A stretch of 64,000 nt of DNA, taken from an uncultured Gammaproteobacteria bacterium (GTDB lineage Bacteria > Patescibacteriota > Patescibacteriia > Magasanikbacterales > GWA2-37-8). The notes below the pieces were generated by a model that worked only from the letters and a program-made list of their open reading frames with translations, searched no databases and was not told the DNA's origin. The position numbers and the translations under genes were made by a program. Of this stretch, positions 7,381 through 64,000 are shown piece by piece; the stretch's first letter is position 1; every line of letters starts with the position of its first letter. The stretch lies in NCBI GenBank assembly GCA_964478235.1, contig CAYZGX010000002.1, positions 20,677 through 84,676 of the forward strand. The letters are read 5' to 3'.

Positions 7381-7427
7381 ACTACAGGTTAGACAAGTCT
7401 GTGCTGTAGTATAGAAGCTGGCGCGGT

Positions 7428-15512: not shown

Positions 15513-15594
15513 CAAACTCCGAGCCTGTTGAACAGGCTCAGCTCATCGAAAAACGGCGCTAACCTGCGCTGTTTTTCGTTTCACGAGCGTCGTT

Positions 15595-17052: not shown

Positions 17053-17108
17053 ACGCGTTGGTTAGTGAGTGACGTAGGTATCCTGACAGAGTAGGGTAGC
17101 AGGTGACG

Positions 17109-17146
17109 AGAGTCCCGTCGCCGGTGCAAACCGGCACGTTTGTGCC
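17109..17146. repeat. Direct repeat DR1 (38 bp) upstream of the cargo gene, in the divergent promoter region
   Basis: gagtcccgtcgccggtgcaaaccggcacgtttgtgcc; 33 of 37 positions are identical to DR2. Confidence 0.7.
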
Positions 17147-17210
17147 TCTTTGCGCCATTGTCGGCTTCGGGGTGTCATGGTACGCTACGAGAATCCAGAA
17201 GGGGACCTAT

Positions 17211-18713: not shown

Positions 18714-18766
18714 TTCTGATGGATGAGTCGTGCCGCCTCGTCCGAACCACTTCTTAGCGAACGATA

Positions 18767-18804
18767 AGAGTCTCTTCGCCGGTGCAAAACGGCACGTTCG
18801 TGCC
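18767..18804. repeat. Direct repeat DR2 (38 bp) downstream of the cargo gene
   Basis: gagtctcttcgccggtgcaaaacggcacgttcgtgcc. Confidence 0.7.
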
Positions 18805-18867
18805 GGTGCCAACGTCGATTTCCGCTGAGGTTTGCGAAAGTGCAGTTCTAAGATAGTCCTCTCTTGT

Positions 18868-18912
18868 GCACGAAATAAAATACCCCCATTTATGGGGGTA
18901 TTTTATTTCGTG
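18868..18912. repeat. Perfect 20-bp-stem palindrome
   Basis: cacgaaataaaataccccca-ttta-tgggggtattttatttcgtg. Confidence 0.8.
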
Positions 18913-19056
18913 TTCTCTTTAAGAGGAGTCGAACGGGGAAGGGAGAAACCGGAAGGTTTCTCATGCGGAGGAAAGGTATCGGAAAACCCGAAGGTTTTTC
19001 CGAAGAGGTCCCGACTTGGTCGGGACCGAGTTCGACTCCGGTGTAAACAGTAGCAG

Positions 19057-48042: not shown

Positions 48043-49743
48043 CTATGAGGCTCCGCCGTTTTCAAAATCTTTAAGCTGCTGCATGACCTCTTTGAGATCT
48101 TCAAGAGCTAGGCGTTCTTGAGGTGTTAGGCCATGGATTCGTTCAGCATTTTCAAGCACAGCAATCTGGCGTTGGGCGCGTGACATGAGCAGGCTAAAAA
48201 TTTGATGAGAGCGCTGTTCCACCTTGTGATAACGGCGTTTGAGGGCAAAGTATCGAGCCCAGCCAAGAATGCTAAGTAATAGCAAGATTGCTGCGCCAAT
48301 AGGAGAGTAGCGTTTATAGATCGCCAGCATGTTCGCCGCTAAAGATGGTGGTGGCAAAATGTTAATGGTCACAGCTGTTGACGGTTGTCCTTTGATGCCG
48401 GTAGTGCTCAAGACATAGGCAGTTACTTGAGCAGTTTCATCGGCGGAGGTTAGAACGGTGGACAGACTGAATGAGCCTTCGGAATTAGCAGCAGTCTCAA
48501 AGGTAATTAAGCCGGCTTGTCGGGATTGCACCTCGACAGCTATACGGGCACCAGGGTAGCGGGTTGAACCACGCACCACAATGTTGTCGCCGCGGTTAAT
48601 AAGCGAAGTGTAGTCGGTGATGGTTGGTGCGCCCAGTAGCTGTGTATCAACAGTAGTAGTGTAGAGCGACTGGTTGCCAGCTCGGTCATAAGCTGCCACC
48701 TTTAGAGCGTGTTGACCAGGTGTGAGATTTGGAAATAGTTTTGAGACTAAAACAGTGGTTGGCCCAGTCGCTTCAGGAGTAATGCGCACAACATCGTAAC
48801 TATCAAGGTGGACATCGTAGTGATCAACCCCAGACATTGCATCGGTCGCTTGTAAAACCAAGGTTTGTTGGAGGGAGTTGTTGAGAGTAAGAGCAGCTGA
48901 AACGTTGGATGGGTCAGTCGTATCAACACGTATCATGGTGCGGCTAGTTTTTGACCAACCACTAACAGTTTGGTAGCGCAAAGCAAAATAGTAAGTGCCG
49001 TCTTCCAGGTTAGCAAAAGATTTTTCATTAATCGATCGAGCTATGCGCTGGTCTGGTTCGGCAGTAGCAGACTTTCCGAAATAGGTTTCAAATACCCGTG
49101 TACCAGCCGGTATGTTCCAATTAAGTTCCGCTTCAGTTTTTGCATACCAAGACGTTTGGTCTGGGTGGGTTGGCGAAGTTGGCACTAAAGCAGTCAGCGT
49201 CGGTGCTGGTTTTGGAGAATCTGGTTGTTTAGTTGTATCTGCTGGGGCTGCCGCAGCAATTTCCACAGTTGTTCCGTTTTGGCCGGTAAAGACGTTTGTT
49301 CCCAAGCCGTCATTTTCGCGAATGGCAGCGCCGCTGAAGGTGAAGTTGGCAGTACCATCTTTTTTAGCTCGAAAAGTCGCTGAAACAACTCGGCCGCCCG
49401 ATCCAGTATATCCAGGGTTAGGGACACCGCCGTTGAATGAAACAACTCCATTAGAGGCTGTAGGCTGTTCTACCCATAACGAAAAAACCGATGGCTGACT
49501 AGCGACTGAAACTACCTCAACCAAATCAGCTGGGTAGACGATACTCGCTTCAGCATTATTAATAGTTTTAGTTTGGGTATTAATATAGGCGCTAATGGTA
49601 AAAGTATTTCCCACTGCAACATTTTTAGTTGAGGCGCTAAGCGACAAAGTCGCCGCTTGAACGGTATAAAAAGGAAATGTTAAACCAGCCAGTAGGTTTG
49701 TGGCTATAAATCCAGTTAGTAACTTTTGGTGGTACGGGCGCAT
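48043..49743 (-). CDS. Cell-surface protein with an N-terminal cohesin-like domain, an Ig-like domain and a C-terminal TM anchor
   Basis: Signal peptide, ATLSLSASTKNVAVGNTFTISAYIN...IVYPADLVEV (cohesin-like), SGVDHYDV...AYDRAGN (Ig-like), then a TM helix and a coiled-coil tail. Confidence 0.5.
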   Translation of the reverse strand: MRPYHQKLLTGFIATNLLAGLTFPFYTVQAATLSLSASTKNVAVGNTFTISAYINTQTKTINNAEASIVYPADLVEVVSVASQPSVFSLWVEQPTASNGVVSFNGGVPNPGYTGSGGRVVSATFRAKKDGTANFTFSGAAIRENDGLGTNVFTGQNGTTVEIAAAAPADTTKQPDSPKPAPTLTALVPTSPTHPDQTSWYAKTEAELNWNIPAGTRVFETYFGKSATAEPDQRIARSINEKSFANLEDGTYYFALRYQTVSGWSKTSRTMIRVDTTDPSNVSAALTLNNSLQQTLVLQATDAMSGVDHYDVHLDSYDVVRITPEATGPTTVLVSKLFPNLTPGQHALKVAAYDRAGNQSLYTTTVDTQLLGAPTITDYTSLINRGDNIVVRGSTRYPGARIAVEVQSRQAGLITFETAANSEGSFSLSTVLTSADETAQVTAYVLSTTGIKGQPSTAVTINILPPPSLAANMLAIYKRYSPIGAAILLLLSILGWARYFALKRRYHKVEQRSHQIFSLLMSRAQRQIAVLENAERIHGLTPQERLALEDLKEVMQQLKDFENGGAS

Positions 49744-49746
49744 GGA

Positions 49747-50553
49747 TTATTTTTTAGCTCGACGTTTTAAAAGCAGACCAAGACCAACCGCTACGATGAT
49801 GCTAATGACAATATAAACAAAAGAGAGAGAGGCTTTTGCTATGACGGTTGGCGGAAGGGTAGTGCTCGCCGCGTTGCCAGCTTTGTCATAGGCTACAACG
49901 GTAACAGGCAAGCTTCGATCTTGAGCGCGCAAAACATAGGTGTTACCAATACGTATTGCCGGGGAACTGCCCTCGGTAACTTCATAATGATCAATGCCAG
50001 ATTGAGCGTCAGTTGCAAATACTGATAAAAAAACTTTACCATTAAATAAGCTTGGATCTTGGCCAATATCGGCTGTAGTGAAAACTGGCGGTGTATTATC
50101 TTGGGCAACAATATCACGCTCAGCATTATGTGGTTCGGCGGTGGCACGACCAATTGAAAAAGATGTCGCCATTTCCTTTACCGGCACCGGCGTGCCTTTG
50201 CCGTCGTGAGCATAGGCGGAAAGTGTTGGTTTGAAGGTGAGTGTACCGGCATTGTTAACTTTAAAAAACATGGTAAACAATAAGCCGTTCGGACCACTAA
50301 AGCCAGTCGGCGCCCCACCGGTAAATGTAATGGTTTTAGCGGTTGGCGACCATGATGGTTTGCGAACCCAATATGATAATGCAGAACCAGCCACGCTCAC
50401 CTCGCGCATGTCAACAAGTGTACCACCAACAGGTATCGAAAGCGTCCCTTCCACTACATTAATATCCTTCCCCTCGGTATTGAGATATACTCCAACAGAC
50501 ACAATGTCATTTTTGTGGATAGTGGGTGTTGATGGTGTGAGTGTGATGTACAT
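49747..50553 (-). CDS. Paralogous cohesin-like and Ig-like protein, C-terminally anchored
   Basis: ITLTPSTPTIHKNDIVSVGVYLN...; SGIDHYEV...AYDKAGN; C-terminal TM helix plus KRRAKK. Confidence 0.5.
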   Translation of the reverse strand: MYITLTPSTPTIHKNDIVSVGVYLNTEGKDINVVEGTLSIPVGGTLVDMREVSVAGSALSYWVRKPSWSPTAKTITFTGGAPTGFSGPNGLLFTMFFKVNNAGTLTFKPTLSAYAHDGKGTPVPVKEMATSFSIGRATAEPHNAERDIVAQDNTPPVFTTADIGQDPSLFNGKVFLSVFATDAQSGIDHYEVTEGSSPAIRIGNTYVLRAQDRSLPVTVVAYDKAGNAASTTLPPTVIAKASLSFVYIVISIIVAVGLGLLLKRRAKK

Positions 50554-50556
50554 AGA

Positions 50557-53094
50557 TTATTTTTTCTTATCCCATTGGTAGAGCAAGATGGAAAAATCTA
50601 CTGAGTTAACCTGGGCATCTTTATTGATATCAACACAAGGGTTGCGGAACGGTGGAGTCAACTTCCAGAAAGCTAATAAGATAGAAAAATCAATCGAATT
50701 TACACGAGTGTCATGGTTGAAGTCAGCCCCAGAGCAGGTTTGTGCACCAACAGGCTGTGTAGAGGTAGTTTCTGGTGCAAGAGAGCTAGGGCCTCCACCA
50801 CCACCTCCGCCGCCTCCTCCTCCTCCACCACCTCCGCCGCCACCGCCACCGTCAGTTTCTCCGCTAGGAATGGTAAACATGCGGGAAGAGCCGGATTGTT
50901 CGGTGCCAAAGTATACTACTAATCTAAAATAGTGAACCCCTACCGATGTAACGGTGGTAGAGAGGTCAGTGTTAAAATCTTCACCGGGGTTGATAAATTT
51001 TGCAGCCGAAGCGTAGTAGACATCGTTACTCCCACCGCATGGATTGGTAAGATCTTGCACGACACACCACTCATAGTGGTATTCATAACCACTGGTACCT
51101 TCGTTGGTAATAGTGACGTTGGCAGAAACATCAGGGGCGGTGCTTGAAGTTACACTGTTAATAATAACTTGAGCGGGGGAGGTGGCCACAAGCCAGTAGT
51201 CGTTAGTTGTAATTGTTTTTCCACTCTCAACTTGGGTGGAAACCGACGATTCCCACAAGCCGCCGGTGGCCGCGCTTGAAATCGAATAGGTGTATTCATA
51301 GACACCGGTAGCGATACTAGTCATACTGGCGCCAGAAATAATCACGTTACGATCAGCGTCATAGATAGTGATTGCGGGTACGGTAAATGAGGCGGTTGGG
51401 ACAGAATTGCTGTTAAGCACGTATATTTTGGCGCGGTAGGTGTTACCAGCTGCTACACTGTCAATATTTGACATGGTAACCAAAAAACCAGCGGTCTGGT
51501 TAGACAGTGAAGCGCGGGTGGAGGCGGCTACGTCAATATTAGCAGTCAAGAAGTTGCCGATTGTGCTAGCAGTGGTCAGGGTGCTAGTTAAAACTGACCA
51601 TACATCAGCAGCAGTAATATTGTTTCCGTAGTTGGTCAGAGTACGAGCGGCATTGCTCCAGACAGCGAGTGCAAGCGAGGTGGTAGAGTAATCGGTCAAG
51701 GTTCGAACAGAGGTGTTCCACACGTCAGCAGCACTGAGTGTGCTCGTGCCGCGAGAAGAAACCTGGGCATCGAGGTTGGTAGCAAGAAGTCGTCCAACTG
51801 AGCCAAGACTGGTGAGAGTGGTTGTCGGAACCTGCCAAATTGCTGTAGCAATAGTGGAGGTACTGTAATCGGTGAGGGTGCGGCTACCAGCTGCCCACAC
51901 ATCGTTAGCGCTAATGTTATTAAGCGCGTTTATGAGCGATCGGTTAGTTAGAACCTCGGTGCGGATTGTAGACGCGGCAATATCTGTGTTAGCTGCCAGC
52001 TGTTGCCCGATAGTGCCAGCAACGGAAAGTGTCGATGTTAAAATGCTCCAAACTTCAGCAGCAGTAATATCGTTACCGTAGTTAGTTAGAGTACGAGCGG
52101 CATTGCTCCAGACAGCCAGTGATAATGAAGTAGTTGAATAGTCGGTCAGAGTACGAGCGGCACTATTCCACACGTCAGCAGCGCTGAGTGTGCTCGTGCC
52201 ACGAGAAGAAACCTGGGCGTCGAGGTTGGTGGCAAGGAGTCGCCCAACTGAACCAAGGCTGGTGAGAGTGGTTGTTGGAATTTCCCAGATGGCAGAAGCA
52301 ATACTGGAAGTGCCATAGTTGGTAAGTGAGCGGGTCGACGCAGCCCAGACATCGCTCGCGCTAATATTATTGAGAGCATTAATGAGTGAGCGGTTGGCAA
52401 GGACTTCGGTAATAATACTTGAGGTAGCAGTATTCAGAGCGGTGGCAATGTATGATTCGGTAGCAATTGTTCCGCCTCCTGTTAATGTGCTGTCGGTCAA
52501 GCGACGAGTTGGGGCGGTAATATCGCTCCAGATATCGGTAACGAGTGTGCCAAAGCCAGTCAAAGTGCGGGTTCCGGCGCTCCAGACATCGGTAGCGATA
52601 GTCGCCCCCGAAGTGAGTGTTCGCGCAGCTGAGCTCCAGACTGAAGTAGCAATCGACGAAGTCGAGGCGCCAGAAGAGGTAATGGTAAAAGTTTTATCAA
52701 TTTTGGCCAGATCACCACCAACGAGTGTTCCGCAGGTTATAGCTGCTGGGTACACACCCTCGGTAGAAGTGGGGGCAAATGAATAACTCTGCCAGCCGTT
52801 GTCACTGGTTGTAGTTAGAGCAACATTATTAACCAATAAAAGGTTGGAAGGGCTGTAAATAGAGATAGAGCAACTGGTCGTTGCAGCTACAAAATCATCA
52901 TTGTAAATAAATTCACCAATAGTGTTGGTAGTATTGAGTGGGTATTGCGTAATACCAGCGGCTAAGGCTGCTTGTGGCGCGGAAAAAAAGCTGCACAAGG
53001 CGAGAAGTGAAAAAAAAGAAAGAAAGCCCCCGGATGATTTTTTGGGCGCTATCTTTAAAAGTCGTGCGCTAAATTCACGATTAAAAAAAATCAC
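50557..53094 (-). CDS. Large secreted repeat protein with a poly-Gly linker and a C-terminal tandem dockerin-like module
   Basis: Signal peptide. Repeated VWS(N)AARTLT(D/N)Y units, including two ~150-aa near-identical repeats. A run of 22 Gly. C-terminal DFNHDTRVNSIDFSILL and DINKDAQVNSVDFSILL, matching the D-x-N-x-D-x-x-VNS-x-D pattern. Confidence 0.6.
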   Translation of the reverse strand: MIFFNREFSARLLKIAPKKSSGGFLSFFSLLALCSFFSAPQAALAAGITQYPLNTTNTIGEFIYNDDFVAATTSCSISIYSPSNLLLVNNVALTTTSDNGWQSYSFAPTSTEGVYPAAITCGTLVGGDLAKIDKTFTITSSGASTSSIATSVWSSAARTLTSGATIATDVWSAGTRTLTGFGTLVTDIWSDITAPTRRLTDSTLTGGGTIATESYIATALNTATSSIITEVLANRSLINALNNISASDVWAASTRSLTNYGTSSIASAIWEIPTTTLTSLGSVGRLLATNLDAQVSSRGTSTLSAADVWNSAARTLTDYSTTSLSLAVWSNAARTLTNYGNDITAAEVWSILTSTLSVAGTIGQQLAANTDIAASTIRTEVLTNRSLINALNNISANDVWAAGSRTLTDYSTSTIATAIWQVPTTTLTSLGSVGRLLATNLDAQVSSRGTSTLSAADVWNTSVRTLTDYSTTSLALAVWSNAARTLTNYGNNITAADVWSVLTSTLTTASTIGNFLTANIDVAASTRASLSNQTAGFLVTMSNIDSVAAGNTYRAKIYVLNSNSVPTASFTVPAITIYDADRNVIISGASMTSIATGVYEYTYSISSAATGGLWESSVSTQVESGKTITTNDYWLVATSPAQVIINSVTSSTAPDVSANVTITNEGTSGYEYHYEWCVVQDLTNPCGGSNDVYYASAAKFINPGEDFNTDLSTTVTSVGVHYFRLVVYFGTEQSGSSRMFTIPSGETDGGGGGGGGGGGGGGGGGGGGPSSLAPETTSTQPVGAQTCSGADFNHDTRVNSIDFSILLAFWKLTPPFRNPCVDINKDAQVNSVDFSILLYQWDKKK
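51520..52440. repeat. Intragenic tandem duplication (~450-bp unit, two copies, ~90% identity)
   Basis: gcagcagtaatat...gagtacgagcggcattgctccagacag recurs at about 51607 and about 52058. Confidence 0.75.
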
Positions 53095-53121
53095 AAACCT
53101 CCATGATATAAAATACGAAGA

Positions 53122-53301
53122 CTATTTTTTCTTGGATTGAGAATCTTCGGTTGGGGCTGCTTCACCATCTTTAAAAGCGCTTCGCAAATGACGAATAGCT
53201 TCAGTAATACTCTTAGCTAATTCTGGGATTTTTTTAGTCCCAAACAAGAGAATTACCACAATGGCTAAAATGACGATTTCTTTTGTTCCAATATTAAACA
53301 T
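53122..53301 (-). CDS. tatA: Twin-arginine translocase subunit TatA/E (59 aa; too short for the supplied ORF track)
   Basis: MFNIGTKEIVILAIVVILLFGTKKIPELAKSITEAIRHLRSAFKDG is a TatA-type TM helix plus amphipathic helix with the conserved FG hinge. Confidence 0.75.
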   Translation of the reverse strand: MFNIGTKEIVILAIVVILLFGTKKIPELAKSITEAIRHLRSAFKDGEAAPTEDSQSKKK

Positions 53302-53306
53302 AGTGG

Positions 53307-54032
53307 TTAGTTAGTTTCTTGAATAGCTTTATTAGCATTCATTAAAATAGTAATTTCGTATAAAACCAGCAAAGGTAGAACCATTATCAATAATGATACA
53401 CCATCAGTTGGTGGAAGTAAAGTCACAAAAATAAAAATAGTAAGCACAGCATGACGGCGTTTTCCGCGTAATTGCGGAGCGCTCAACAAACCGAGTTTTA
53501 CCAGAAAACTAAGAACAATTGGGAATTCAAAGGTGAGCCCAAGGAAGGTGGAGGTGATAAAAATTTGCTCTAAAAATTGGCCGATATCCCAGTAATTTTT
53601 GATGCCAAGGCTAGTGTTGATATCAGCAATGGCGCCAAAAGTGGAATGCATGGTAAAAAAACCGTAGGCAAAACCAGAGGCAAAGAGAATGATGGTTCCA
53701 GGGATCGTAGCAAAAAAACGACGTTTTTCTCGCTTGTTTAAGCCAGTTTTTAAAAAAGAAAATATCTGAAAAGCAATGTAGGGTAGGGTAAAAATGAGAG
53801 CAAAGAAAAGCCCGGTATTCATAGAAAGATCTAAGAATTGAAAGGGTGAAGTTGCCACCATTAAGACCCCGTCAAATTCCATTAACGTCTTAAATACTCG
53901 AAAAAAAGGAATTGTACAAAGGAATCCGACAGCAAAAAAGAATAAAAAAACAATCGCAATGCGGTAGATGCGCCGGCGAATTTCATCTATGTAGATGGCG
54001 TACGGGGCAAATTTTTTCCAAAAAGTAGTCAT
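53307..54032 (-). CDS. tatC: Twin-arginine translocase subunit TatC
   Basis: Six-TM topology with a TatC-like N-terminus. Adjacent to tatA. Confidence 0.75.
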   Translation of the reverse strand: MTTFWKKFAPYAIYIDEIRRRIYRIAIVFLFFFAVGFLCTIPFFRVFKTLMEFDGVLMVATSPFQFLDLSMNTGLFFALIFTLPYIAFQIFSFLKTGLNKREKRRFFATIPGTIILFASGFAYGFFTMHSTFGAIADINTSLGIKNYWDIGQFLEQIFITSTFLGLTFEFPIVLSFLVKLGLLSAPQLRGKRRHAVLTIFIFVTLLPPTDGVSLLIMVLPLLVLYEITILMNANKAIQETN

Positions 54033-54067
54033 AGAGCGTATTTGCCCTCCTTTGGCTGAAGATCTGC

Positions 54068-55099
54068 TTATTCAGTTGGAATAGTGTCGTTTGGTTCAGA
54101 AACTGCTACGCTTTCGGTTGGTGCTGGGCTAGCATCTTGGGGAGGGGCCGTAACTGGTTCGATTATCGGGAGTTCAGCTGGGGCGACAACAGGCGCTTCA
54201 ACTGCTGGCAGTTCGATCGGGGCTGTAGAGGCTGTTTCTGTAGGTGGGACAACTGGTTCGGTAGATGTTGGGAACTCTACAGGGAGAGGTGGGTTGGGTG
54301 TAGAGGTGCTTGGAGTTGGAACCTCGGAGATTGGCGCAAAAAACGGTGAGGTTGTAGCAATGGTACTACTGGCAGTTGAGGTAAGAATTGGAGCATTCGG
54401 AATATCGATAGTCAGGGGAACAATGGCAACCGTGCTTGTAGGGACAACTGTTGGAAGAGCTGTTGCGGTGCGGTGTTTATTTAGCCATTGGGCAACAGCA
54501 GCCACACCCTCTTCCCATGAAGCATATGTGTGGGTAGAAGAACCAGTGTTGCCAACATTGCCAGGGTTGTTGGTGGTGGCGCCAATGCCAAGGGTACCAA
54601 AAAATGAATCAAGCTGAATAATCGCGGTTACCAGGCGCATATCCACTGAGTATTGGTGGGCGCTAAACCAAACCATCTCACCAGTTATCGGACTAGCTGG
54701 AGCCGCTGCGATAATATAGTCGGTGATGTCTTTTGAAGAAACAAAAACCGGCATTTTTGATAAAATAGTGTCGATTTTTTGCTGATGTAGCGGGTCGGTG
54801 GCGTAGAGTGAGATGTCATAGCCAAGCATGGTGGTGGCTGGAGCTGGTCGTGGAGTAGTATCAAGAACGACTTCTAGGCCACTCGCCACAATTTCGGCCG
54901 GGGAAGAATTGGCTGCTTGCGCGCCCATCTCTACGGTGGCTAGTAATAAAATTTGGCTTAGGGTGACTTGAGTTTGTCGGTAGTCAGTATCGGCTGCTTG
55001 GTAATTTTCTAAATCACCATTTTGCAAATGCAAACCACGCATCGAATTGAGAGTGATGAGTCGTTTCTCGAGGATTGTTTTCAGGAAATCAAGATCCAT
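54068..55099 (-). CDS. Hypothetical protein with a Pro/Thr-rich C-terminal half
   Basis: A structured N-domain followed by about 150 aa of P/T/S/A-rich low-complexity sequence. Confidence 0.45.
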   Translation of the reverse strand: MDLDFLKTILEKRLITLNSMRGLHLQNGDLENYQAADTDYRQTQVTLSQILLLATVEMGAQAANSSPAEIVASGLEVVLDTTPRPAPATTMLGYDISLYATDPLHQQKIDTILSKMPVFVSSKDITDYIIAAAPASPITGEMVWFSAHQYSVDMRLVTAIIQLDSFFGTLGIGATTNNPGNVGNTGSSTHTYASWEEGVAAVAQWLNKHRTATALPTVVPTSTVAIVPLTIDIPNAPILTSTASSTIATTSPFFAPISEVPTPSTSTPNPPLPVEFPTSTEPVVPPTETASTAPIELPAVEAPVVAPAELPIIEPVTAPPQDASPAPTESVAVSEPNDTIPTE

Positions 55100-55102
55100 A
55101 AC

Positions 55103-57772
55103 CTAGGTAAAGAGTAGTGCTTTAAAGCTTTCCAAGTTACTTGGGCGATTAATCCACAACCACTTTAATCCATCAACAGTGGTAAATATTTCCATTTTAT
55201 TACCCACGATGGCAGTACCGGCAGTATAAGGGTACTGTCCAGCCGCCTCTAAGGTATTTTCGACAACATCTAAATAATATATTCTTTGTGTAGTGGCGGA
55301 TACGTTGAGATATAAGCGGTCACCGCCATCATAAGCGTATTGTGCACCGGTGGTAAGCGTTTCAATCTGCGGAGTGATACTCATCGGCTCCCAGCGATTG
55401 GTGGTGATATTGAAACGATCAAAGCCGAGCGCTGCACTACCTTTGGCGGAGAAAATAAATTTACCTTTCATGTTAGCGTCGGAGGTGCCAAAACCCCACT
55501 TCATACAGGTTGCCAAACCGCGCGTTACTTCGTCGTAGACAGTGTAGGATGTTGAAGCTGCCACCGGTAGTGTGCCAGCAACAGTAATAGTCAAGACTGT
55601 AGAAGTATTTGAAGAAACGATACCTTCGATATCAGATTGGCCAGCGCCGGCGGTTTTTTTGACGCGCTTACCAGTAAAGATGTTGGTGGCCCAGGTTTGA
55701 CTACTATCGGCAATAGCGGTAGTAGTTTGGCCGGCGCCGGTGGCAATACCAGAGGTGCTCGCACCATATCCAGCACGCTCACAAATAACATACCGACCAG
55801 TACCGTTTACCGGCAATGTAGTGGCAGTTTTTAGGGTAAGCGTCGTGGCAGTATTGGAAGAGATTTCCATACCAACCGAGATGAGCGAGCCGGTGGCGGC
55901 TACTGGGTTGGCGGCGGCATAGTAAACGATATAGTTGGCCCAAGCGTTCACCGTCCAATTTTGTGAAGCGTCGGTCAGAGTGGATGTAGAAAAACCGGTA
56001 AAGGTAGCATTGCCCGATGGAGTGCCCCCCATAGTGTAGGTAAATACTGTTGCGCTGGTCACCGATACAACGGTAGTAGTGATGTTGTAGGTGGCCGCAT
56101 CGCCACCGGTGGCGCCTTGTATTTTTATATAGTCGCCAACTTTGAGACGGTGTGCGTTGACGGTGGTTACTGTTGCGGTGGTAGTAGAAAAGGTAATAGT
56201 GGAAATAGCTTGATCGCGGCGGGACAAGACGCCGGAAGAGTTGCACAAAGTAACGGTGCCTTGTGCCGGTGATCCTGAGGCAAAATTGCGTCCCAAGAAA
56301 CACATATCAGAAGGAATGCTGTACCCGATGATGGCCGATTGCACGCCCATGGCAAAGAAAATTTTGTCGTAGTCGCCAACAATAATATAGCCACTCGTGG
56401 TATCAGGAGTCGTTGTCCAAGCATTCTCCGCATACAAGGTAAGGGCGGTGGCAGTATTACTCGCAATACGTCGGCGCTGGCCAATACCGGTGCCGGAAAT
56501 AATTTCTACCATATAATTGGCCCAGCGATTGGTGGTCCAGCTAGCGGCTGGGGCGTTTGTATCAGTAAGTGTGGTACTGGTAGCAGCTGTTGCCACACCG
56601 CCTCCAAATCCTTCAATACGGTACAAAGTGGTTGTATCAGCTGGGGTGGTAATACTGCCTGCCCACGTGAGCACAGTGGCAGTATTTGAGACGATAAGAC
56701 GAATTTGATCAGCGCCCGAGGATGGTTTGGTACCAGAATAAAAACGGACATAATAGCCAGCCCATTCGTTGGTAGTCCAGTTTTTTGTGCTGTCGGTGAG
56801 GGTGGTGATAGTGCCAGAAGTCGCAGTACCCTTTTCCCACAAAGTCGCATTCAGATTTGGTTTTTCGATAGCTCCGTCGGTGGCGGCAACGTTGAGTAGG
56901 GCTGAGGTAGCTGAGCGGATATACCAGGTATCAGCAGCTACGTCGTAAAACTGAACAGTATAAAAAGGAATTGAAGCACTAGAGGAGAATAAAAAGATGC
57001 CGCCTGATTCCACAATAAAGCGTGATGAAGAATCTGGGGTGACATCCCAAGCAGTATCAACGGTGATAACAGAGCTTTCTATTTGATAGATAGAGCCAAC
57101 GCCGGCAGCTTGAGCAACAAAAGCGGTAGCCGGTGCAGCTGGGTTGGTGTTGTAGTCGATTTCGTAACCACCAGTATCAGCGTAGGTAAACACCGTGGCA
57201 GTATGGTGTAAAATTTTACGCACTGCCCCGATACCAGCGCCGTAGATAACGCGAAATTGATAACCAGCATACTGGTTGATAGCTGCGGTAGAAGTAGAAT
57301 CAGTGAAAGTTAAACCAGCACTGATGGCTGTCATGATGCCGGTTTGGGCGACCACTGGGTCAGCTACAGCAGTAATTTTGCGGCGTTGCCCCGCCCCGGT
57401 GCCCGAAACAATTTTAATATCATACCCTTTGAGCACCTGGCCGTTGTAGGCAGCAGCTGTAATGGTGGTAGCGGTAGCAGACAAAACAGCCCCTTCATAG
57501 CCATAATCACTCGAAAATTTCATGGATGCCCAAGTGGTTGGGGCAATAGTTGGGATACTTAGCTGAATGTAGGTATCATTCCAGGTGTCGTATTTGTAAA
57601 AGAGTGCCGCAGTAATGAGGTAGTAGATGTAGCGGCCGTGAGATTCGTGTGAGATGCTATTTTCAGCAGTAGTAGAACAGCTAAATGCTGCTGATACAGC
57701 TGGTGCAAAACGACACCACTTCCAGACGGGTGTATCAACTTGTCTAATGAGTTTATTAGTAGTAAGTGCCAT
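55103..57772 (-). CDS. Large (889 aa) Thr/Ala/Gly-rich secreted repeat protein
   Basis: Recurrent WxxNxW/AGxG motifs throughout. No TM helix after the N-terminus. Confidence 0.45.
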   Translation of the reverse strand: MALTTNKLIRQVDTPVWKWCRFAPAVSAAFSCSTTAENSISHESHGRYIYYLITAALFYKYDTWNDTYIQLSIPTIAPTTWASMKFSSDYGYEGAVLSATATTITAAAYNGQVLKGYDIKIVSGTGAGQRRKITAVADPVVAQTGIMTAISAGLTFTDSTSTAAINQYAGYQFRVIYGAGIGAVRKILHHTATVFTYADTGGYEIDYNTNPAAPATAFVAQAAGVGSIYQIESSVITVDTAWDVTPDSSSRFIVESGGIFLFSSSASIPFYTVQFYDVAADTWYIRSATSALLNVAATDGAIEKPNLNATLWEKGTATSGTITTLTDSTKNWTTNEWAGYYVRFYSGTKPSSGADQIRLIVSNTATVLTWAGSITTPADTTTLYRIEGFGGGVATAATSTTLTDTNAPAASWTTNRWANYMVEIISGTGIGQRRRIASNTATALTLYAENAWTTTPDTTSGYIIVGDYDKIFFAMGVQSAIIGYSIPSDMCFLGRNFASGSPAQGTVTLCNSSGVLSRRDQAISTITFSTTTATVTTVNAHRLKVGDYIKIQGATGGDAATYNITTTVVSVTSATVFTYTMGGTPSGNATFTGFSTSTLTDASQNWTVNAWANYIVYYAAANPVAATGSLISVGMEISSNTATTLTLKTATTLPVNGTGRYVICERAGYGASTSGIATGAGQTTTAIADSSQTWATNIFTGKRVKKTAGAGQSDIEGIVSSNTSTVLTITVAGTLPVAASTSYTVYDEVTRGLATCMKWGFGTSDANMKGKFIFSAKGSAALGFDRFNITTNRWEPMSITPQIETLTTGAQYAYDGGDRLYLNVSATTQRIYYLDVVENTLEAAGQYPYTAGTAIVGNKMEIFTTVDGLKWLWINRPSNLESFKALLFT

Positions 57773-57781
57773 ACAACGATG

Positions 57782-58480
57782 CTAAATTGAGCTGGTAAAA
57801 TCAAGCCCGCGACGAATAGAATTCGCGTAGGCATTATCAGCTGGATCTTGGAACATCTGGTGAGTCCAACCAGCAAGTGAAACCATGTTGGTTACCGAGG
57901 TGACGGTGGAGCAGGTAGTAACAGTAGTGACCGTACCGACAGTGGTGATTGTAGACAAGGTGAGTGAAGTGGTAATCGAATCAAGTGTCACACGTAGGCG
58001 CCGCTGAGCATCAACCGTCCCAACACCTTCAAGCAATTCAGCAATACGACGCAAGAAAAACAAGCTATCGGCCGAATCGGTCACCATGGCCGACGAAGTG
58101 TCGAAACTAGCGGTAACTGTACCAGAAATAGGTAAGGTTGTTTGGTTGCTCGCGATAACCACCGGAGTGGACGAAGCCATAACGGCCTGACCCTGCGAAG
58201 GAATTTTATTGGTGTTGGTAACAATTGTTGCCAGGTTTCCGTCTTCGGTAGCTGGGTTAACACGGGCGTTAGAGCTATTTTTTACCCCAACAACACTGGT
58301 AGACGGAGTGCTACCAAATACATAAGCTTCGGCTTTTTTGGGAGCGAGAAGCGAGCCAAAAAAACCCAAACCAGCCACCCCTAACAATTTAAAGAAGAGG
58401 CGCTTTCGTTTATCAATACGATCGTTTGTGGCAACCGGAGCAGGAGCTTTAGTTTTAGTGGGCTGTTTTTTACGTTTCAT
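57782..58480 (-). CDS. Secreted Thr-rich protein with a Tat-like (KR) signal peptide
   Basis: N-terminus KRKRLFFKLLGVAGLGFFGSLLAPKKAEA resembles (S/T)RRxFLK with a KR pair. Confidence 0.45.
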   Translation of the reverse strand: MKRKKQPTKTKAPAPVATNDRIDKRKRLFFKLLGVAGLGFFGSLLAPKKAEAYVFGSTPSTSVVGVKNSSNARVNPATEDGNLATIVTNTNKIPSQGQAVMASSTPVVIASNQTTLPISGTVTASFDTSSAMVTDSADSLFFLRRIAELLEGVGTVDAQRRLRVTLDSITTSLTLSTITTVGTVTTVTTCSTVTSVTNMVSLAGWTHQMFQDPADNAYANSIRRGLDFTSSI

Positions 58481-58663
58481 AGTACTAAATTAAAGTACGT
58501 ATACATAAAAAATAATATATAAAACTAATTATAGCACAAAATGGATAGAAGTAACAATTGAGATAGTGGGTGTAGTATATAAAACAAAAACAGCCTATCT
58601 TTAAGCTGTTTTTGAAGGGTCGCGATTTTTGCTGACACCCTTTCTGTGCGTCGCGAGAGCGCC

Positions 58664-58879
58664 TCAGCGGGTGGTGCGGGTGGCTGGTTTCGATGACGCA
58701 GTGAGCAGTGTGTGCTTTTTGGCGCGACGCAGGGCGGTGTAGGTAATCCACATGGGAGACAGAACTACACCTCCAGGAGCGATGACAAAAATGAGGGCGC
58801 CAACTACGACATTGAAATAACCGACTTTCTGGGTTAAAAGAGCGACCTTCTTGCCAACACGTCGAGCCTCTTGTAGCAC
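58664..58879 (-). CDS. Small hypothetical membrane protein in a GC-rich block
   Basis: A 71-aa ORF with one TM helix and local GC of about 55%. Weak call. Confidence 0.3.
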   Translation of the reverse strand: MLQEARRVGKKVALLTQKVGYFNVVVGALIFVIAPGGVVLSPMWITYTALRRAKKHTLLTASSKPATRTTR

Positions 58880-58949
58880 GGTTGCCTCCGGAAGAAAAAG
58901 GTTGTTTAAGAGGTCAACATGATACCACGATGTGGGGCAAAAGTCAACA

Positions 58950-59339
58950 TTATGGGGTATTCACGAACCCGACGGGGTTGCGGCGGGAGACGCGTAGTGT
59001 GAGCGCGGACCAGGGTAGTGGCAGAATACTTTTGTAATCCTGCAGCATACGGTCGAGGTCGAGCAGAGCCTTGCGCAGCAGGTTGTCATTATCTCGATCG
59101 GCTCGGTTCGCGGGGAGCGAGCCGCGCGCCACGAGCATGCCGGCTACCTGAGAAATAGTGTACGTTTCGTCAGCTTCGTACCCCTCAATGAGAATCTGCG
59201 TGAGTTCAATTTTGTTCACACATTCTGTCTCAAGCTTTTTTCTTTTCCGGTGCGATGTGCGTACCTGCCTCGGCAGGTACTTATTCAGAAAAAGATCAAG
59301 AAAACTGTGGATGACTTCTTCGGCGTTTGCATTGTTCAT
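58950..59339 (-). CDS. Hypothetical protein in a GC-rich block
   Basis: 129-aa ORF with no recognisable motif. GC is elevated. Confidence 0.4.
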   Translation of the reverse strand: MNNANAEEVIHSFLDLFLNKYLPRQVRTSHRKRKKLETECVNKIELTQILIEGYEADETYTISQVAGMLVARGSLPANRADRDNDNLLRKALLDLDRMLQDYKSILPLPWSALTLRVSRRNPVGFVNTP

Positions 59340-59610
59340 GATGCCCCTTTCCGATGGACGAGGTGGAGGTGTTCAGCTTGGTGAGACGCGGATAGTTGAG
59401 CTTCGTGTAGGATAGTACTTGTTTTGTGGATTTTGTCAATATAAAAACACCCCAATTGCTTGAAGTGTTTTAAATATTTTTTTGAGCAAAACCGTCTCAT
59501 TTTAGGTACAATGATTTGTAGCCAAAATGAGTGGACGGTTTTACTTCTAATGTTCGCCTGCCTCCCTGCACGATGCAAGGAGGGGTTGAGTGTTTCTTGT
59601 AGCTTTTACA

Positions 59611-59982
59611 CTATTCCCCGGCGCTGGGTTGGCGCACGATGTTGGTCTTGTGCCCATTGGGGTACAGGTAGACCATGATCAGCTCTTTGTTCATGATACT
59701 CGAAACGGAAAGAACTCCATTGGTCAATGCGATTTTCTTGACCGGCAGCTTGACGATATCTGGACCATCGAACTCCCAGCGGTCATCGGTCTCATCTTTG
59801 TCGTCCCTCGTAGCTACGAACAGACGACCCACCCAGGAGCAGTGAATGGTAATTTTTTCTTTTTTCTGTACGATCTTGGCGATTTCCGACCGATGCCACA
59901 CCCGGTGGCTAGTACGACCAGTTGACCAGACGCTATAGAAGACCTGCCCTCCAATGTAATGTTGCAAATCGATCTCAGCCAT
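59611..59982 (-). CDS. Hypothetical protein in a GC-rich block
   Basis: ATG at 59982 preceded by GGAGAG. 123 aa with no recognisable motif. Confidence 0.45.
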   Translation of the reverse strand: MAEIDLQHYIGGQVFYSVWSTGRTSHRVWHRSEIAKIVQKKEKITIHCSWVGRLFVATRDDKDETDDRWEFDGPDIVKLPVKKIALTNGVLSVSSIMNKELIMVYLYPNGHKTNIVRQPSAGE

Positions 59983-60350
59983 GGGCTTCTCTCCTCTTGG
60001 CAAACCGGACGTCTGTCCGTGCCAGATTGCGCGAAATGCGCAGTTTGTATTGCTTGTTTGCTCCCTGCTCTGACTAGTGATGTAACTAAAATCAGAACGG
60101 CTAATTATACAATACAATCACCTATTTGTCAATACTGCCATACCGAGTGGGACACCTCAGTATTTTTTGATATGTAGGGCAGTAGACAAAATATAAGGCA
60201 GTTTATTAAGGATAAAATGGGTATGAGGATAAAATAAAAATACCCCAGATAAACTGGAGTATTTTTATTGGTAGACCCAATGATTGAGAATTGGAACTCT
60301 TTGGTACAGGAAATAGGTAGGTGGAAGGTGGTTTTACAAGCTATATAAAC

Positions 60351-61166
60351 CTAATTGTCCAAACACTTTATGTATTCAGAATTATAGTTGCTATCGTAGT
60401 TAGCTGGATGTTCTGGTTTACGACTTAACTCATAATAAAACTGTGCAGTTTGCGTGTCACCTGCTTCTTGGGCTTTTTCAAAGGCTAGCAGATAGTCTCT
60501 CCTAGCTACACCGTCTGCATAATTCTTTGCTTGAGTTTTACACTTTTCTATTTTTATCGCTGGGTCAATGGTCTTGCGTACTTGGGTTACAGGCTTTACT
60601 TGTGTACTTGTTGTTGGTTGTAAATTTAGTGAGTCTAATAACTGTTTAATTTCTGAATATTGAGCCTCGCTTCCTGTAACATCGAAAATTGCTTTTTTCA
60701 TGTCTGAAATCTGTTTTTCTTTAATCGGGTCACCTGCAATATAAGCCTCAACGAATGCCTTCGCCTCATTCTCTCTTTGAGAAATTTCGGCAGTAGCAAT
60801 CACATAATAAATTACAGCGTCTTCACCAGCACAATTTTTCTGCCCAGATATCAACCAAGAATTAAAAGATACTGTTACCTGTGTTTTTTTCTGGGCTAAT
60901 TCTTCAAGTTTTGAATATACCTTTGGGTCAACAACACAATACTCATCTTCTTGAGAAGATTGTGGGTCGGTTTTAACGTAAGCCCTAAATGTCTTGAAAT
61001 ACAACCCTCTTCTTTCAACCGCAGTAACATAACCAGTATGTTCACCCACCGTAGTTTCATGGTGAATGCCGCTAATTAATGCGTATAACGCACCTATGAA
61101 TAGAACAACTATAACCAAAGTACCATTAATGAATTTCATATGATTGTTATTCTTTTTTTCTACCAA
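60351..61166 (-). CDS. Hypothetical membrane-anchored protein in an AT-rich block
   Basis: N-terminal TM helix. About 37% GC. Confidence 0.45.
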   Translation of the reverse strand: MVEKKNNNHMKFINGTLVIVVLFIGALYALISGIHHETTVGEHTGYVTAVERRGLYFKTFRAYVKTDPQSSQEDEYCVVDPKVYSKLEELAQKKTQVTVSFNSWLISGQKNCAGEDAVIYYVIATAEISQRENEAKAFVEAYIAGDPIKEKQISDMKKAIFDVTGSEAQYSEIKQLLDSLNLQPTTSTQVKPVTQVRKTIDPAIKIEKCKTQAKNYADGVARRDYLLAFEKAQEAGDTQTAQFYYELSRKPEHPANYDSNYNSEYIKCLDN

Positions 61167-61797
61167 AAATAATGTATAAGAAGCCTTTAAAATATAATAC
61201 TAGGCACAAAGTAATCCAACAGAACCAGATAAGAATTGAGAACAATGCGACATGAAGAAAAAAAGCATTGCTTCTTTCATACTTAACTATGTTTTCATAG
61301 GCACATTTGTCACGTTTATCTTCATGTATTAAGCAAACTCGGTTTTTTTCATGAACTAAATTAAGGATGCTTTCTTTTATCGTTGTTTTCATTTTTTCAG
61401 ATTCCTTCTTGTAATCAGAAGACACAAGTGGTAAAGCGGTATCAAGTGAATTTTCTAAATTTCTATTACAATAACTCTGTTCTTTGAGTTTGTATTCGTA
61501 TAACCAAGTATACTCATCTTCCAGTACGTTAAGACAGCCGAACTCGCCATTCAAAGCTAAAAAATCTGGTACGACATTGCCTGTTTTGTAAGACTTTCTA
61601 GTAAAATCCTCAATGGAATATATTATTTTTGTGTTTGATGGTTTTAGTTCGATACCGTGATACAACCCAATAGGTGTAACTATTATTAGGAAAGTAGTCG
61701 TGACAACAAAGACTACTTTTAATAATCTATGCCACCATCTTGAAGTTAGATTCAAATCTGGGCGGAAAAAGGACTTTATTTTATTACTCATATTCAT
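61147..61797 (-). CDS. Hypothetical two-TM protein in an AT-rich block
   Basis: TM helices near the N- and C-termini. Overlaps the downstream gene by 20 bp. Confidence 0.45.
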   Translation of the reverse strand: MNMSNKIKSFFRPDLNLTSRWWHRLLKVVFVVTTTFLIIVTPIGLYHGIELKPSNTKIIYSIEDFTRKSYKTGNVVPDFLALNGEFGCLNVLEDEYTWLYEYKLKEQSYCNRNLENSLDTALPLVSSDYKKESEKMKTTIKESILNLVHEKNRVCLIHEDKRDKCAYENIVKYERSNAFFLHVALFSILIWFCWITLCLVLYFKGFLYIIFGRKKE

Positions 61798-61859
61798 AAA
61801 TAATGGGTATTTCTACCCATAGTTAAAGCTAACTAGATTGTATCTCTAAGATTGCTTTT

Positions 61860-62468
61860 TTACAAGTTTTCGCTAAGTAAAGGCAATAATTTTCTCTGTT
61901 TTTCCATCTCCTGTTCAAGGGTATAATGTGCAGAATAGTAAACATTATTAGTTAACCGAAGCAAAATGGGCGCTTTTACCTCTACCATAAATCTGCGATT
62001 CTCCTCAGTTAAGCCGCCCGACTGCTTAAGGTTATCAGTTAAGTCAGCTAATTTGATACGCCACGCATCTTCGTTTTTGGCTTCCGTGAGTCTCGCAATC
62101 ATGAGTAGCCATCGTTCAGTGTGGTCTGTAACGTCCATAGGGTGAGTGCAAAGCCTGATAAGCTCAATGGTACGCTCTGTAAAACCCATATTCTTTAGTT
62201 CTTCGAATGATATGCCACCATCTTCAACAATGTCATGTAGCAAGGCTGCGGTAAACAAATCATAATCAGGGTCATCCCAGTGATGACAAGTGCTTACCAA
62301 ATCTCGAACACGAAAAGAATGCGTGTAATTTTGTTCGTCTGGAAGACCTTTGCGAGTTCCTTTAATATGTTTTTTTACGAGCGTTTCAGCCTTTTTAGTA
62401 AGTTCATCGCATTTTGCATAGTAATCTGATAAAGAATGTGTTGACTCAGTATTTTTTATATTTTTCAT
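61860..62468 (-). CDS. Standalone HD-domain phosphohydrolase (SpoT-hydrolase-like)
   Basis: H...HD...D pattern: YTHSFRV, LLHDIVEDGG, KLADLTDN. Confidence 0.65.
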   Translation of the reverse strand: MKNIKNTESTHSLSDYYAKCDELTKKAETLVKKHIKGTRKGLPDEQNYTHSFRVRDLVSTCHHWDDPDYDLFTAALLHDIVEDGGISFEELKNMGFTERTIELIRLCTHPMDVTDHTERWLLMIARLTEAKNEDAWRIKLADLTDNLKQSGGLTEENRRFMVEVKAPILLRLTNNVYYSAHYTLEQEMEKQRKLLPLLSENL

Positions 62469-62764
62469 ATGTTTATTGTTAGGTGAATTAAATTAGTGCT
62501 TGATGTTTTCTGCTTTAAAAGCGAACGACCTTTAAAAACAAAAAAGCGGCTAAGAGATTAAATCCAGTCTATGACTGAATGAAATCTCCCAACCGCTTAG
62601 GTTAGTCATATATTACATTGGTTTCCAGCAGATTTCCCTGGTTACCTATCTCAACTAAGTTGAGAAGTACTACATGGCCTGATTAGTGACAGGCTGACAG
62701 TTTAAATTGTGAAGAGTACATGTATATTTTACCACGATTTCAAGGTTTTGTCAACGAAGCATAA

Positions 62765-64000
62765 CTAGCCGCCGAGAACTTTTAAAGTCCGAATAACATA
62801 GCTTTTTAATTCACCTTCGCTAATTGACACTCCATCTGCCGCAGGGTGGTGATACTTTTTTGAGTAATCGTTAATACTACTCAGTTCAGCTTCAAGACCA
62901 TGTAGCGATTTAGGTAAATCTGCTTGGTTTACGGCTGCCATTTTCGACAGCAGGTCTCCCAGCCATTCAGCAGGCAAAAATAATTTTGGTAACTTAAAAC
63001 GAAGATAACCTTCAAGAACTGGCCTGATACATCTTGCGACGCCAATCAAGCTTGAATACTCACCTGTGTCAGCAAATTTATTGAGAGTTTCAATGTCTCG
63101 AAGATATGTGTTTAGGGCATGATGAGCTACGTCCCACTCCACAATAGTACTGCTGTTTGCAACTCGTTTAACTTCTAAGCATTTAAGGTCGAGAGCTTTG
63201 GCTTCGTTCCAAACAGAAATTAAAAATTGTAAATCATGAGACATTACGATTGTTTGTTTTGCTTTTGCCGCCATAAGCATTATTTCTTGCTGAGTGGAGG
63301 TCTTTCGGTGAATGTCGAGACTAGTAATCGGGTCGTCAAAAATAACTACTTTATCGCATATGTTTGCGTCCTGGTCTAGGCGTGCCAAGAAGAAGGCAAA
63401 AGCCAAGGTGCTCTTATCACCATCACTCAATATGGACTTAAATGAGGGTTCTCCAATAGCGCCATCAAGGTTGATTGGAGCACCATTAATTTCAATGCAG
63501 TAACTTGAGCTTGGTGTGCCACCGCTATATCCTTTTCTAGTCTGTGCAATTCTGAATGATACCCCAAACTTTTCCAGGTAGGCATTTATACTTGTTTCAA
63601 ACCTTTCCAGCAGCGTCTTATCAAAGGAATCGAGGTCATCTTTTGCAACCCTTTTTTTCTCTTCAAGTTCTGTTTTTTCATTTCTTAATTTTTTCCAGGC
63701 GTTACATAATTCGGTAGCTAAAGGTGTATGTCGATTCTTTAGGCAGTTGAGTGTGCTAAGTTTATTTTGCTCAGTAAGTAAGTTTCCAGAACCCGCAGAT
63801 GTTTTTTTGGTTGCTAAAATAGCGTTAATGTCGGCAACTTCTTTGTTGTATGCAGTCACTAATTTTTCGATTTCACCAAACTCCAGTAGTGCTGCCGCCA
63901 AATTTGGCTCAACGTTGATAATTTCAAGCGGAGCATCAGTTTTGCGTTTAAGATGTTCGGTGATTTCAGTTTGAAGCTTGTCCCAGGCCTCTTTCAAATC
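62765..64000 (-). CDS. AAA_13-type ABC ATPase (PrrC/RloC-like), N-terminus outside the window
   Basis: Coiled-coil segment, ABC signature-like LSDGDKSTLAFAFFLA, Walker B VVIFDDPITSLD and H-loop MSHD. The C-terminal ~170-aa domain has R-x3-E plus His. Walker A is absent from the window, so the gene continues past 64000. Confidence 0.55.
   Translation of the reverse strand, partial: DLKEAWDKLQTEITEHLKRKTDAPLEIINVEPNLAAALLEFGEIEKLVTAYNKEVADINAILATKKTSAGSGNLLTEQNKLSTLNCLKNRHTPLATELCNAWKKLRNEKTELEEKKRVAKDDLDSFDKTLLERFETSINAYLEKFGVSFRIAQTRKGYSGGTPSSSYCIEINGAPINLDGAIGEPSFKSILSDGDKSTLAFAFFLARLDQDANICDKVVIFDDPITSLDIHRKTSTQQEIMLMAAKAKQTIVMSHDLQFLISVWNEAKALDLKCLEVKRVANSSTIVEWDVAHHALNTYLRDIETLNKFADTGEYSSLIGVARCIRPVLEGYLRFKLPKLFLPAEWLGDLLSKMAAVNQADLPKSLHGLEAELSSINDYSKKYHHPAADGVSISEGELKSYVIRTLKVLGG

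Follow-up and report, generated by a model that had tools for sequence, protein, structure and literature searches.

RloC proteins are defined by the motifs of ABC ATPases, a coiled-coil insert with a CxxC zinc hook, an Arg-X3-Glu-X36-52-His motif and a length of 658–897 amino acids (aa) (Davidov and Kaufmann, PMC2610378), and the nuclease domain of RloC and PrrC belongs to the HEPN fold (PMC3710099). In Geobacillus RloC the zinc hook silences the nuclease, a DNA-end-dependent ATPase activates it, and the activated enzyme excises the wobble nucleotide of tRNAs (PMC3458546). PrrC of E. coli is about 400 aa long, is without the coiled coil and zinc hook and is always found in a type Ic hsd locus (PMC3458546). 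Here we describe an ATPase of RloC architecture encoded in an AT-rich block (positions 60351–64000) of a 64-kb window, by which is meant the whole stretch of DNA that was analysed and to which all positions refer. The host is a Patescibacteria bacterium related to Magasanikbacteria. Members of the Patescibacteria, also called the candidate phyla radiation, possess tiny genomes, and little has been documented of their mobile elements or immune systems.

The block is the left third of a 10.3-kb island inserted in a tRNA-Glu gene. Its exact boundaries and the empty site in sister strains define a serine-recombinase island that would bring an RloC-type abortive-infection nuclease to Patescibacteria. 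Very probably it carries separate units: the RloC-type enzyme, a hydrolase similar to Mesh1 preceded by a structured RNA leader, and a lipoprotein with two membrane proteins. The leader, a by-product of the analysis, may matter more than the island itself, being widespread, supported by covariation, outside Rfam and placed before hydrolase and orphan genes. If it binds a ligand, it would represent a new riboswitch class and open a route to studying stress or alarmone signalling in organisms not yet culturable on their own.

Integration site and extent of the island

The window was extended with L001, a 10,332-bp Logan contig retrieved by exact-sequence look-up of the HD protein of the block; a look-up with the full ATPase returned this contig alone. 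L001 is 100% identical to window positions 60245–64000 over 3756 bp and runs 6.6 kb past the window end (window position = 70577 minus L001 position), which gives the extended coordinates used below. The extension recovered the Walker A half of the ATPase and with it the full protein of 760 aa. The following features were located.

60270–60281, minus strand: attL, a 12-bp remnant of the tRNA-Glu 3' end, the left island boundary
60282–64000, no strand: the part of the island inside the window, continuing to about 70548 in extended coordinates (L001 10295 down to 30)
60351–61166, minus strand: membrane-anchored protein, 271 aa from a TTG start or 262 aa from an ATG at 61139, with one N-terminal membrane helix
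61147–61797, minus strand: two-helix membrane protein, 216 aa, with hydrophobic helices at the N- and C-terminus
61860–62468, minus strand: HD protein of Mesh1/small alarmone hydrolase (SAH) type, 202 aa
62532–62716, minus strand: structured RNA leader of the HD gene, 185 nt, found with covariance model R1
62726–62754, minus strand: sigma-70-like promoter of the leader/HD unit (TTGACA, 17 nt, TAAAAT, extended TG)
62765–64000, minus strand: RloC-like ATPase, the C-terminal 411 residues; the full open reading frame (ORF) is L001 5530–7812 and reaches 65047 in extended coordinates

A preliminary description of the block, made from its letters, had listed two membrane proteins, an HD protein and a partial ATPase and had remarked on a fall in GC content from about 60.3 kb. 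All four genes are present, each on the minus strand, and the fall is real. In 1-kb bins from 60 to 64 kb the GC content is 0.377, 0.327, 0.393 and 0.404, as against 0.43–0.50 in most other bins of the window; at 60.3 kb it drops from about 0.47 to 0.33–0.40, and it stays at 0.31–0.44 across the entire 10.3 kb of L001. The compositional boundary matches, to the base, the end of homology with island-free strains (60281/60282), and is therefore not a chance fluctuation.

A 129-aa core protein encoded outside the block (58950–59339) was found on 16 contigs from other samples. Seven of these are 99.97% identical to window positions 48950–60280 and then diverge, carrying an intact tRNA-Glu gene and no island. 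In the window the junction reads TGGTAGACCCAA, which is attL and has one mismatch to the tRNA, followed by TGATTGAG..., while the island-free contigs read TGGTAGTCCCAA followed by CGGGGATCGAACCCGTA... (also given as TGGTAGTCCCAA followed by CGGGGATCGAACC...) and continue into the intact tRNA-Glu(TTC) gene; on contig L002 this attachment site lies at 8997–9071. At the other end of the island, L001 1–29 is TACGGGTTCGATCCCCGTTGGGACTACCA, the 3' end of the tRNA, which closes with the same 12-mer as attL. Since the junction reads as a 12-bp repeat and the island-free strains carry the intact tRNA, the island is placed 12 nt from the 3' end of tRNA-Glu(UUC).

Abutting the tRNA 3' end is an ORF (L001 1–1536, minus strand; about 69041–70576 in extended coordinates) for a large serine recombinase with Resolvase, Recombinase and Zn_ribbon_recom domains, which matches the phrog_95 integrase family at 7e-85. 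Its C-terminus (...HLVVPTGIEPV) is the antisense translation of the tRNA T-arm. The integrated ORF reads through the att core into the antisense tRNA, whereas in an excised circle it would end 26 codons past the core, so that the recombinase acquires a different C-terminus on integration. The locus thus has what characterises a tRNA-integrated serine-recombinase island, namely a terminal recombinase, a duplicated att core, a tRNA gene and an empty site in relatives. Presumably the recombinase inserted the island into the last 12 nt of tRNA-Glu(UUC), regenerating the tRNA and leaving the 12-bp remnant at 60270–60281. Horizontal acquisition, which had been suggested earlier, is borne out by the recombinase, the tRNA attachment site and the empty site in sister strains. 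In a collection of 15 billion proteins each island protein occurred on one contig only, and the flanking core proteins on 6–9.

Yeast tRNA-Glu(UUC) (sc-tRNA-Glu(UUC)) is among the in vitro substrates of Geobacillus RloC (PMC3458546); that the tRNA targeted by the island matches an RloC substrate is probably a coincidence. Beyond the intact tRNA-Glu gene (past the equivalent of 60400) the island-free strains differ again from one another, with a glycoside hydrolase family 1 gene in L002, L004, L007, L008 and L010, pilin-like (N_methyl) genes in L003 and another ORF in L005. The tRNA-Glu neighbourhood is a hotspot of variation.

The RloC-like ATPase

Pfam AAA_13 matches the in-window fragment of the ATPase at 2e-18 and the full protein at 8e-47. 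Among the PADLOC models, the single-gene candidate PDC-S06 is matched by PDLC04895 (1.8e-82), which covers residues 1–664 and leaves the C-terminal 95 residues uncovered, and by another 12 profiles of that system. With the PADLOC model of PrrC the match is confined to the ABC core (24.5 bits, residues 539–630), and there are weak matches to the LmuB hidden Markov model (8e-15) and to SMC_N. More than 400 full-length homologues of 758–771 aa show 36–46% identity, many of them named 'wobble nucleotide-excising tRNase' by JGI. In a scan of species-representative genomes, a set that does not hold the source genome, at least 488 homologues were found, with a patchy distribution over many bacterial phyla and several archaea.

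The residues expected of such an enzyme are conserved. In an alignment of 40 homologues the invariant ABC residues are G38-K39-T of Walker A, S541 and G543-D544 of the signature (LSDGDK), D571-D572 of the Walker B/D-loop (FDDP) and the switch His, H604. The coiled-coil insert holds an invariant zinc hook (C271-P-F-C274), and R675, E679 and H733-H734 are invariant in the C-terminal domain. The features that had been read from the in-window part are all found in the ATPase, namely the LSDGDKSTLAFAFFLA signature, a coiled-coil region and, in the C-terminal domain, R-x3-E...H. In an AlphaFold2 model (pLDDT 84) long helices at 118–494 split the ABC head, and a fold search with this model gave SMC, Rad50 and Lamassu LmuB heads with coiled coils as the best matches. 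The C-terminal domain has a HEPN fold, as indicated by the structure model and a fold search; PDB sequence searches with the whole ATPase and with a profile of the C-domain gave nothing useful.

The protein thus has the architecture of RloC: a Rad50/SMC-like ABC head, a zinc-hook coiled coil and a HEPN-fold C-domain. It is assigned to the RloC type because its ABC motifs, zinc-hook insert, size (760 aa, within the 658–897 range) and HEPN fold match the published definition, from which its R-x3-E...H departs in the Glu–His spacing only, and the PrrC/RloC-like character proposed in the preliminary description is upheld. Like RloC, the gene is usually not tied in cis to a type I restriction system, is laterally mobile and is patchily distributed. 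With PrrC it shares an ABC N-domain, a C-terminal HEPN-type RNase with an Arg/Glu/His triad and, presumably, the logic of abortive infection; unlike PrrC, it is 760 aa long with an insert and has no hsd gene on its island. Rad50, SMC and LmuB have a head split by an antiparallel coiled coil in the same manner, but no HEPN domain follows at their C-terminus, and they rely on nucleases that are separate proteins (Mre11/SbcD, LmuA), of which none is present here.

Some points weigh against placing the protein with RloC. The spacing between Glu and His is 53, one beyond the 36–52 of RloC, and the nearer H716 (X36) is not conserved. Identity is about 30–46% inside its own clade, and the likeness to Geobacillus RloC is one of architecture and motifs. 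The host, a member of the Patescibacteria, and the carriage on a serine-recombinase island also set it apart from described RloC; a literature search on RloC in Patescibacteria returned nothing relevant. Orthology by way of a constant residue offset to Geobacillus RloC was tried and dropped, since the offsets at K44/K39, C291/C274, D572/D572 and R692/R675 differ.

By analogy with Geobacillus RloC, the Rad50-like head and the zinc-hook coiled coil may keep the HEPN ribonuclease silent until it is triggered by a phage-associated cue, which in the Geobacillus enzyme is DNA ends plus ATP hydrolysis. The active enzyme would then cut tRNA anticodon loops, halting translation and aborting the infection. 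Both the anticodon-nuclease activity and its trigger are thus ascribed to this clade by analogy.

Neighbouring genes and alternative explanations

From the far end the island genes are, in order, the serine recombinase, five small ORFs, a lipoprotein-like protein, the ATPase, the HD protein and the two membrane proteins. The five small ORFs lie on the recombinase strand and show only weak SpoVG-like and DUF5659-like matches, and the genes from the 325-aa lipoprotein-like protein through the last membrane protein lie on the opposite strand. No hsd or other restriction gene is present among the 11 island genes (Pfam, PHROGs, PADLOC), although hsdRMS had been suggested as something to look for in the extended sequence. 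The lipoprotein and most of the small ORFs gained no assignment from Pfam, NCBIfam, PADLOC or PHROGs. The 271-aa membrane protein belongs to no Pfam, NCBIfam, PADLOC or PHROG family and has one weak homologue, adjoining a leader-bearing locus on contig L103; the 216-aa membrane protein matches no family in Pfam, NCBIfam, PADLOC or PHROGs and was found beside none of the ATPase or HD homologues.

The neighbourhoods of ATPase homologues were surveyed in 80 genomes over 8 kb. Large neighbours are enriched in restriction and defence domains, among them ResIII (10 of 66), HSDR_N, N6_Mtase, Eco57I, GmrSD, DUF6079 and Schlafen, in agreement with the earlier remark that AAA_13 and PrrC-like ATPases keep such company. 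Serine recombinases lie near about 7–13 of the 80 loci. In none of the 80 genomes did an ATPase homologue have, within 8 kb, a relative of the HD protein, of the lipoprotein or of one of the two membrane proteins, and HD homologues occur in three unrelated contexts, none of them with an AAA_13 gene. Given this lack of co-occurrence and the unrelated contexts, the island holds independent, mixed cargo and not a single multi-gene system. The preliminary description of a defence island is accordingly largely right as to an RloC-type nuclease on a mobile island; its idea of one functional module, with the HD and membrane proteins as partners of the ATPase, is not supported.

That idea, in its strongest form, would make the ATPase, the HD protein and the membrane proteins one co-transcribed defence system in which the ATPase senses and the others act as effectors. 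The genes of the lipoprotein and the last membrane protein and the three between them do share one orientation, and HD domains and membrane effectors are frequent in defence systems. Besides the absence of co-occurrence, however, the ATPase and HD genes lie 297 bp apart, with a near-consensus promoter and a leader containing a terminator between them, the ATPase bears an effector domain of its own, and PADLOC files its relatives as single-gene PDC-S06 systems; a joint system is thus improbable. Still less credence can be given to the ATPase as a housekeeping repair protein of the SMC, RecN or SbcC type, with the low GC content as mere local noise. Its head and coiled coil resemble SMC and Rad50, and there is the weak SMC_N match, but the gene is missing from the seven strains whose flanking DNA is 99.97% identical and sits between att repeats on a recombinase-bearing island. 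The HEPN-fold C-domain is lacking in Rad50 and SbcC (PMC2610378), the phyletic spread is patchy and no Mre11/SbcD partner is present, so that this explanation is extremely improbable.

The AT-rich block might, alternatively, be DNA of another organism joined to the host by an error of assembly or binning. The compositional break is sharp, the island proteins were seen once only, and in the sole island-bearing run two contigs stop at the junction (L001 at 60245 and L009 at 60274). The far junction, moreover, is seen through 29 nt of tRNA only, the flank beyond it lying outside the data, and this too weighs against an integrated island. The break nevertheless lies exactly within a tRNA gene; one end of the block is marked by a 12-bp direct repeat, the other by the matching tRNA 3' end next to a recombinase, an arrangement that is the signature of site-specific integration. 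The 30-nt overlap of L001 and L009 is the branch expected of an assembly graph at a repeat; the matching att halves and this overlap make a chimera very unlikely. The 91-kb NCBI contig also crosses the junction between island and host, whose PheT is nearest to Magasanikbacteria and 'Patescibacteria group' entries (52–60% identity), and the relatives of the HD protein and the ATPase, together with the leader RNA, are typical of Patescibacteria.

The HD protein

The best solved relative of the HD protein is Mesh1 (3nqw, E = 9.5e-6), followed by human MESH1, bacterial HD/SAH proteins, a (p)ppApp hydrolase and the hydrolase domains of Rel. H50, H78-D79, E82-D83, D142 and N146 align with the active-site pattern of Mesh1, and there is a local match to TIGR00691 (spoT_relA, 3.9e-8) and one to phrog_990 (1.3e-17). 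The 78 homologues, of about 190–210 aa and 44–69% identity, are named from Uhrbacteria and Taylorbacteria, and several of them carry HD_4 (PF13328) or the name '(p)ppGpp synthase/HD superfamily hydrolase'. LOOT RNA (RF03000, 91.5 bits) was seen at 800–921 of L015, an unrelated Patescibacteria contig with an HD homologue.

From its sequence the protein is classed as a hydrolase-only RSH, a Mesh1-like enzyme similar to small alarmone hydrolases, and probably hydrolyses an alarmone. Like Mesh1 and SAH it lacks a synthetase domain: its roughly 200 aa form a single RSH-type hydrolase domain, which contains the His...His-Asp...Glu-Asp...Asp set. Unlike them it shows identity of only about 25–30%, adjoins no toxic alarmone synthetase and has a gene preceded by a structured leader, which has not been reported for SAH genes. 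Its Pfam scores lie under the curated cut-offs (HD, 21.5 versus 22; HD_4, 16.3 versus 27.2), which counts against the assignment. A bifunctional Rel/SpoT with HD_4, RelA_SpoT and TGS domains is encoded at 5863–7473 on the minus strand of the window, and the HD protein is not the housekeeping Rel, just as had been concluded before.

Structure and covariation of the RNA leader

The preliminary description had overlooked a structured RNA between the ATPase and HD genes. The DNA upstream of HD genes aligns strongly between the island and three unrelated loci. Directly after the ATPase stop codon, 257 nt before the HD start, stands the promoter TTGACA-17-TAAAAT (L001 7823–7851), which agrees with the consensus at 11 of 12 positions. 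It is followed by a leader with a helix P1 enclosing P1a and P2 and then an antiterminator/terminator pair, the terminator hairpin and its U tract lying at about 62598–62538. A pattern drawn from two conserved blocks recovered the leader from 86 metagenome contigs and from none of the viral contigs, and promoters scoring at least 9 of 12 closely precede the RNA in 61 of 70 further copies.

RNAalifold, applied to an independent MAFFT alignment of 66 distinct copies, gave a pair of hairpins, a long stem at the terminator and compensatory changes in support of them; the helices counted below are also seen on this alignment. Covariance model R1, built after the long-range helix P1 had been added, finds a single copy in the window (62532–62716, minus strand; 138 bits, E = 2.5e-28) and no match in 1.18 Mb of control loci. 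Covariation was counted over 71 distinct copies with slid and shuffled controls. Pairs form in 96.8% of cells, compared with 41–49% in the slid controls, and 217 cells are compensatory, with both sides changed (23–56 in the slid controls, 62 ± 9 in the shuffles). Changes on both sides affect 14 of the 30 pairs, and the pairs that covary are 4 of 4 in P1, 4 of 4 in P1a and 4 of 7 in P2. The window copy taken singly folds into the same helices (minimum free energy –63 kcal/mol, z = –5.86).

An alternative helix of 7 bp joins the segment after P1 with the 5' half of the terminator and is paired in 97.4% of cells, compared with 15–59% in the slid controls. At the closing pair of this antiterminator, column 212 covaries both with column 192 and with its terminator partner 322, which marks antiterminator and terminator as structures that exclude each other. 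The loop of P2 (GAAAUCU) may in addition form a pseudoknot with the terminator 5' half (AGAUUUC); both segments are invariant, and both were partly fixed by the search pattern. Two features of the method weigh against the structure as drawn: the search pattern itself fixed the two stretches of highest conservation, whose invariance is therefore uninformative, and an alignment made with a covariance model leans towards the structure supplied to it.

Genes downstream of the leader and its possible function

In the 70 leader copies with a callable downstream ORF, the gene that follows belongs to the HD family in 36, to a Cys-rich family of 130–170 aa in 13 and to a 168-aa family in 7; the remaining copies precede other small ORFs without known domain. 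The leader is always co-oriented with the closely following ORF, whose start codon is usually within about 10–30 nt of the U tract. A search with the 4227 covariance models of Rfam 15 gave the leader no match at E up to 1 in L001, L012, L015 or L018, and none at the gathering threshold in the window. Literature searches on riboswitches tied to small alarmone hydrolases, and on riboswitches of candidate phyla radiation bacteria, turned up nothing relevant. Given its recurrence in 86 metagenome contigs and the lack of a match in Rfam, the leader is regarded as a conserved, apparently undescribed structured RNA and a candidate for a new riboswitch.

The closest described arrangement is that of the ppGpp/PRPP riboswitches (ykkC subtype 2) and other riboswitches of the terminator type, in which a promoter-proximal aptamer-like domain is likewise followed by competing antiterminator and terminator hairpins and precedes a gene of nucleotide-signal metabolism. 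Unlike these, the leader has no similarity detectable by Rfam, has P1 enclosing P1a and P2, and comes so far from metagenome contigs only, apparently of Patescibacteria. In front of the Mesh1-like hydrolase gene, which is very probably transcribed independently of its neighbours, the simplest reading of the leader is that of a transcription-attenuating riboswitch, or of another leader sensing a ligand or factor.

Whether the RNA is a metabolite riboswitch at all has to be weighed with care. It might instead be an attenuator that depends on a protein or a tRNA, or else a small RNA in its own right that happens to stand before variable mobile cargo, a possibility to be taken seriously and rated somewhat short of an even chance. 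The genes that follow it are heterogeneous, with the HD family in 36 of the 70, it has its own promoter and a strong terminator, and serine recombinases and genes of the island backbone are found close to several copies. Against this stand the constant orientation relative to the closely following ORF, the covarying multi-helix 5' domain and the mutually exclusive terminator and antiterminator, which together make up the usual anatomy of a cis-acting switch; even so, a protein-dependent attenuator or a stand-alone small RNA would fit equally well. The more specific proposal, that the leader is a new Patescibacteria riboswitch class sensing a nucleotide signal, and that antitermination switches on the hydrolase and the small proteins, is tentative and somewhat doubtful. 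Most plausible as the signal would be an alarmone ((p)ppGpp, pGpp or (p)ppApp, for instance) or a different compound on which the Mesh1-like hydrolase acts.

Related islands and other features of the window

Units headed by the leader may often be cargo of serine-recombinase islands. Leader-bearing contigs L103, L108, L119, L120, L126, L130, L131, L142, L151, L164, L174 and L176 encode relatives of island proteins, namely of the serine recombinase, of ORFs of 206, 89 and 320 aa and of the 271-aa membrane protein. Since these contigs encode relatives of the recombinase and of other island ORFs, they suggest a family of related Patescibacteria islands with variable cargo.

Elsewhere in the window a tRNA-Arg(GCG) gene (15441–15513, plus strand) is followed directly by a gene for a second large serine recombinase (15595–17052, minus strand). 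The GC content after this recombinase (window 15441–19000) is 0.54–0.66 against the background of 0.43–0.50, and the region 15441–19000 resembles another integrated element next to a tRNA gene, its shift in composition being opposite to that of the island. An 845-aa ORF (50557–53094, minus strand), which specifies a large dockerin-containing surface protein, contains an internal tandem duplication at 51553–52395, its copies being about 395 bp long and 80% identical.

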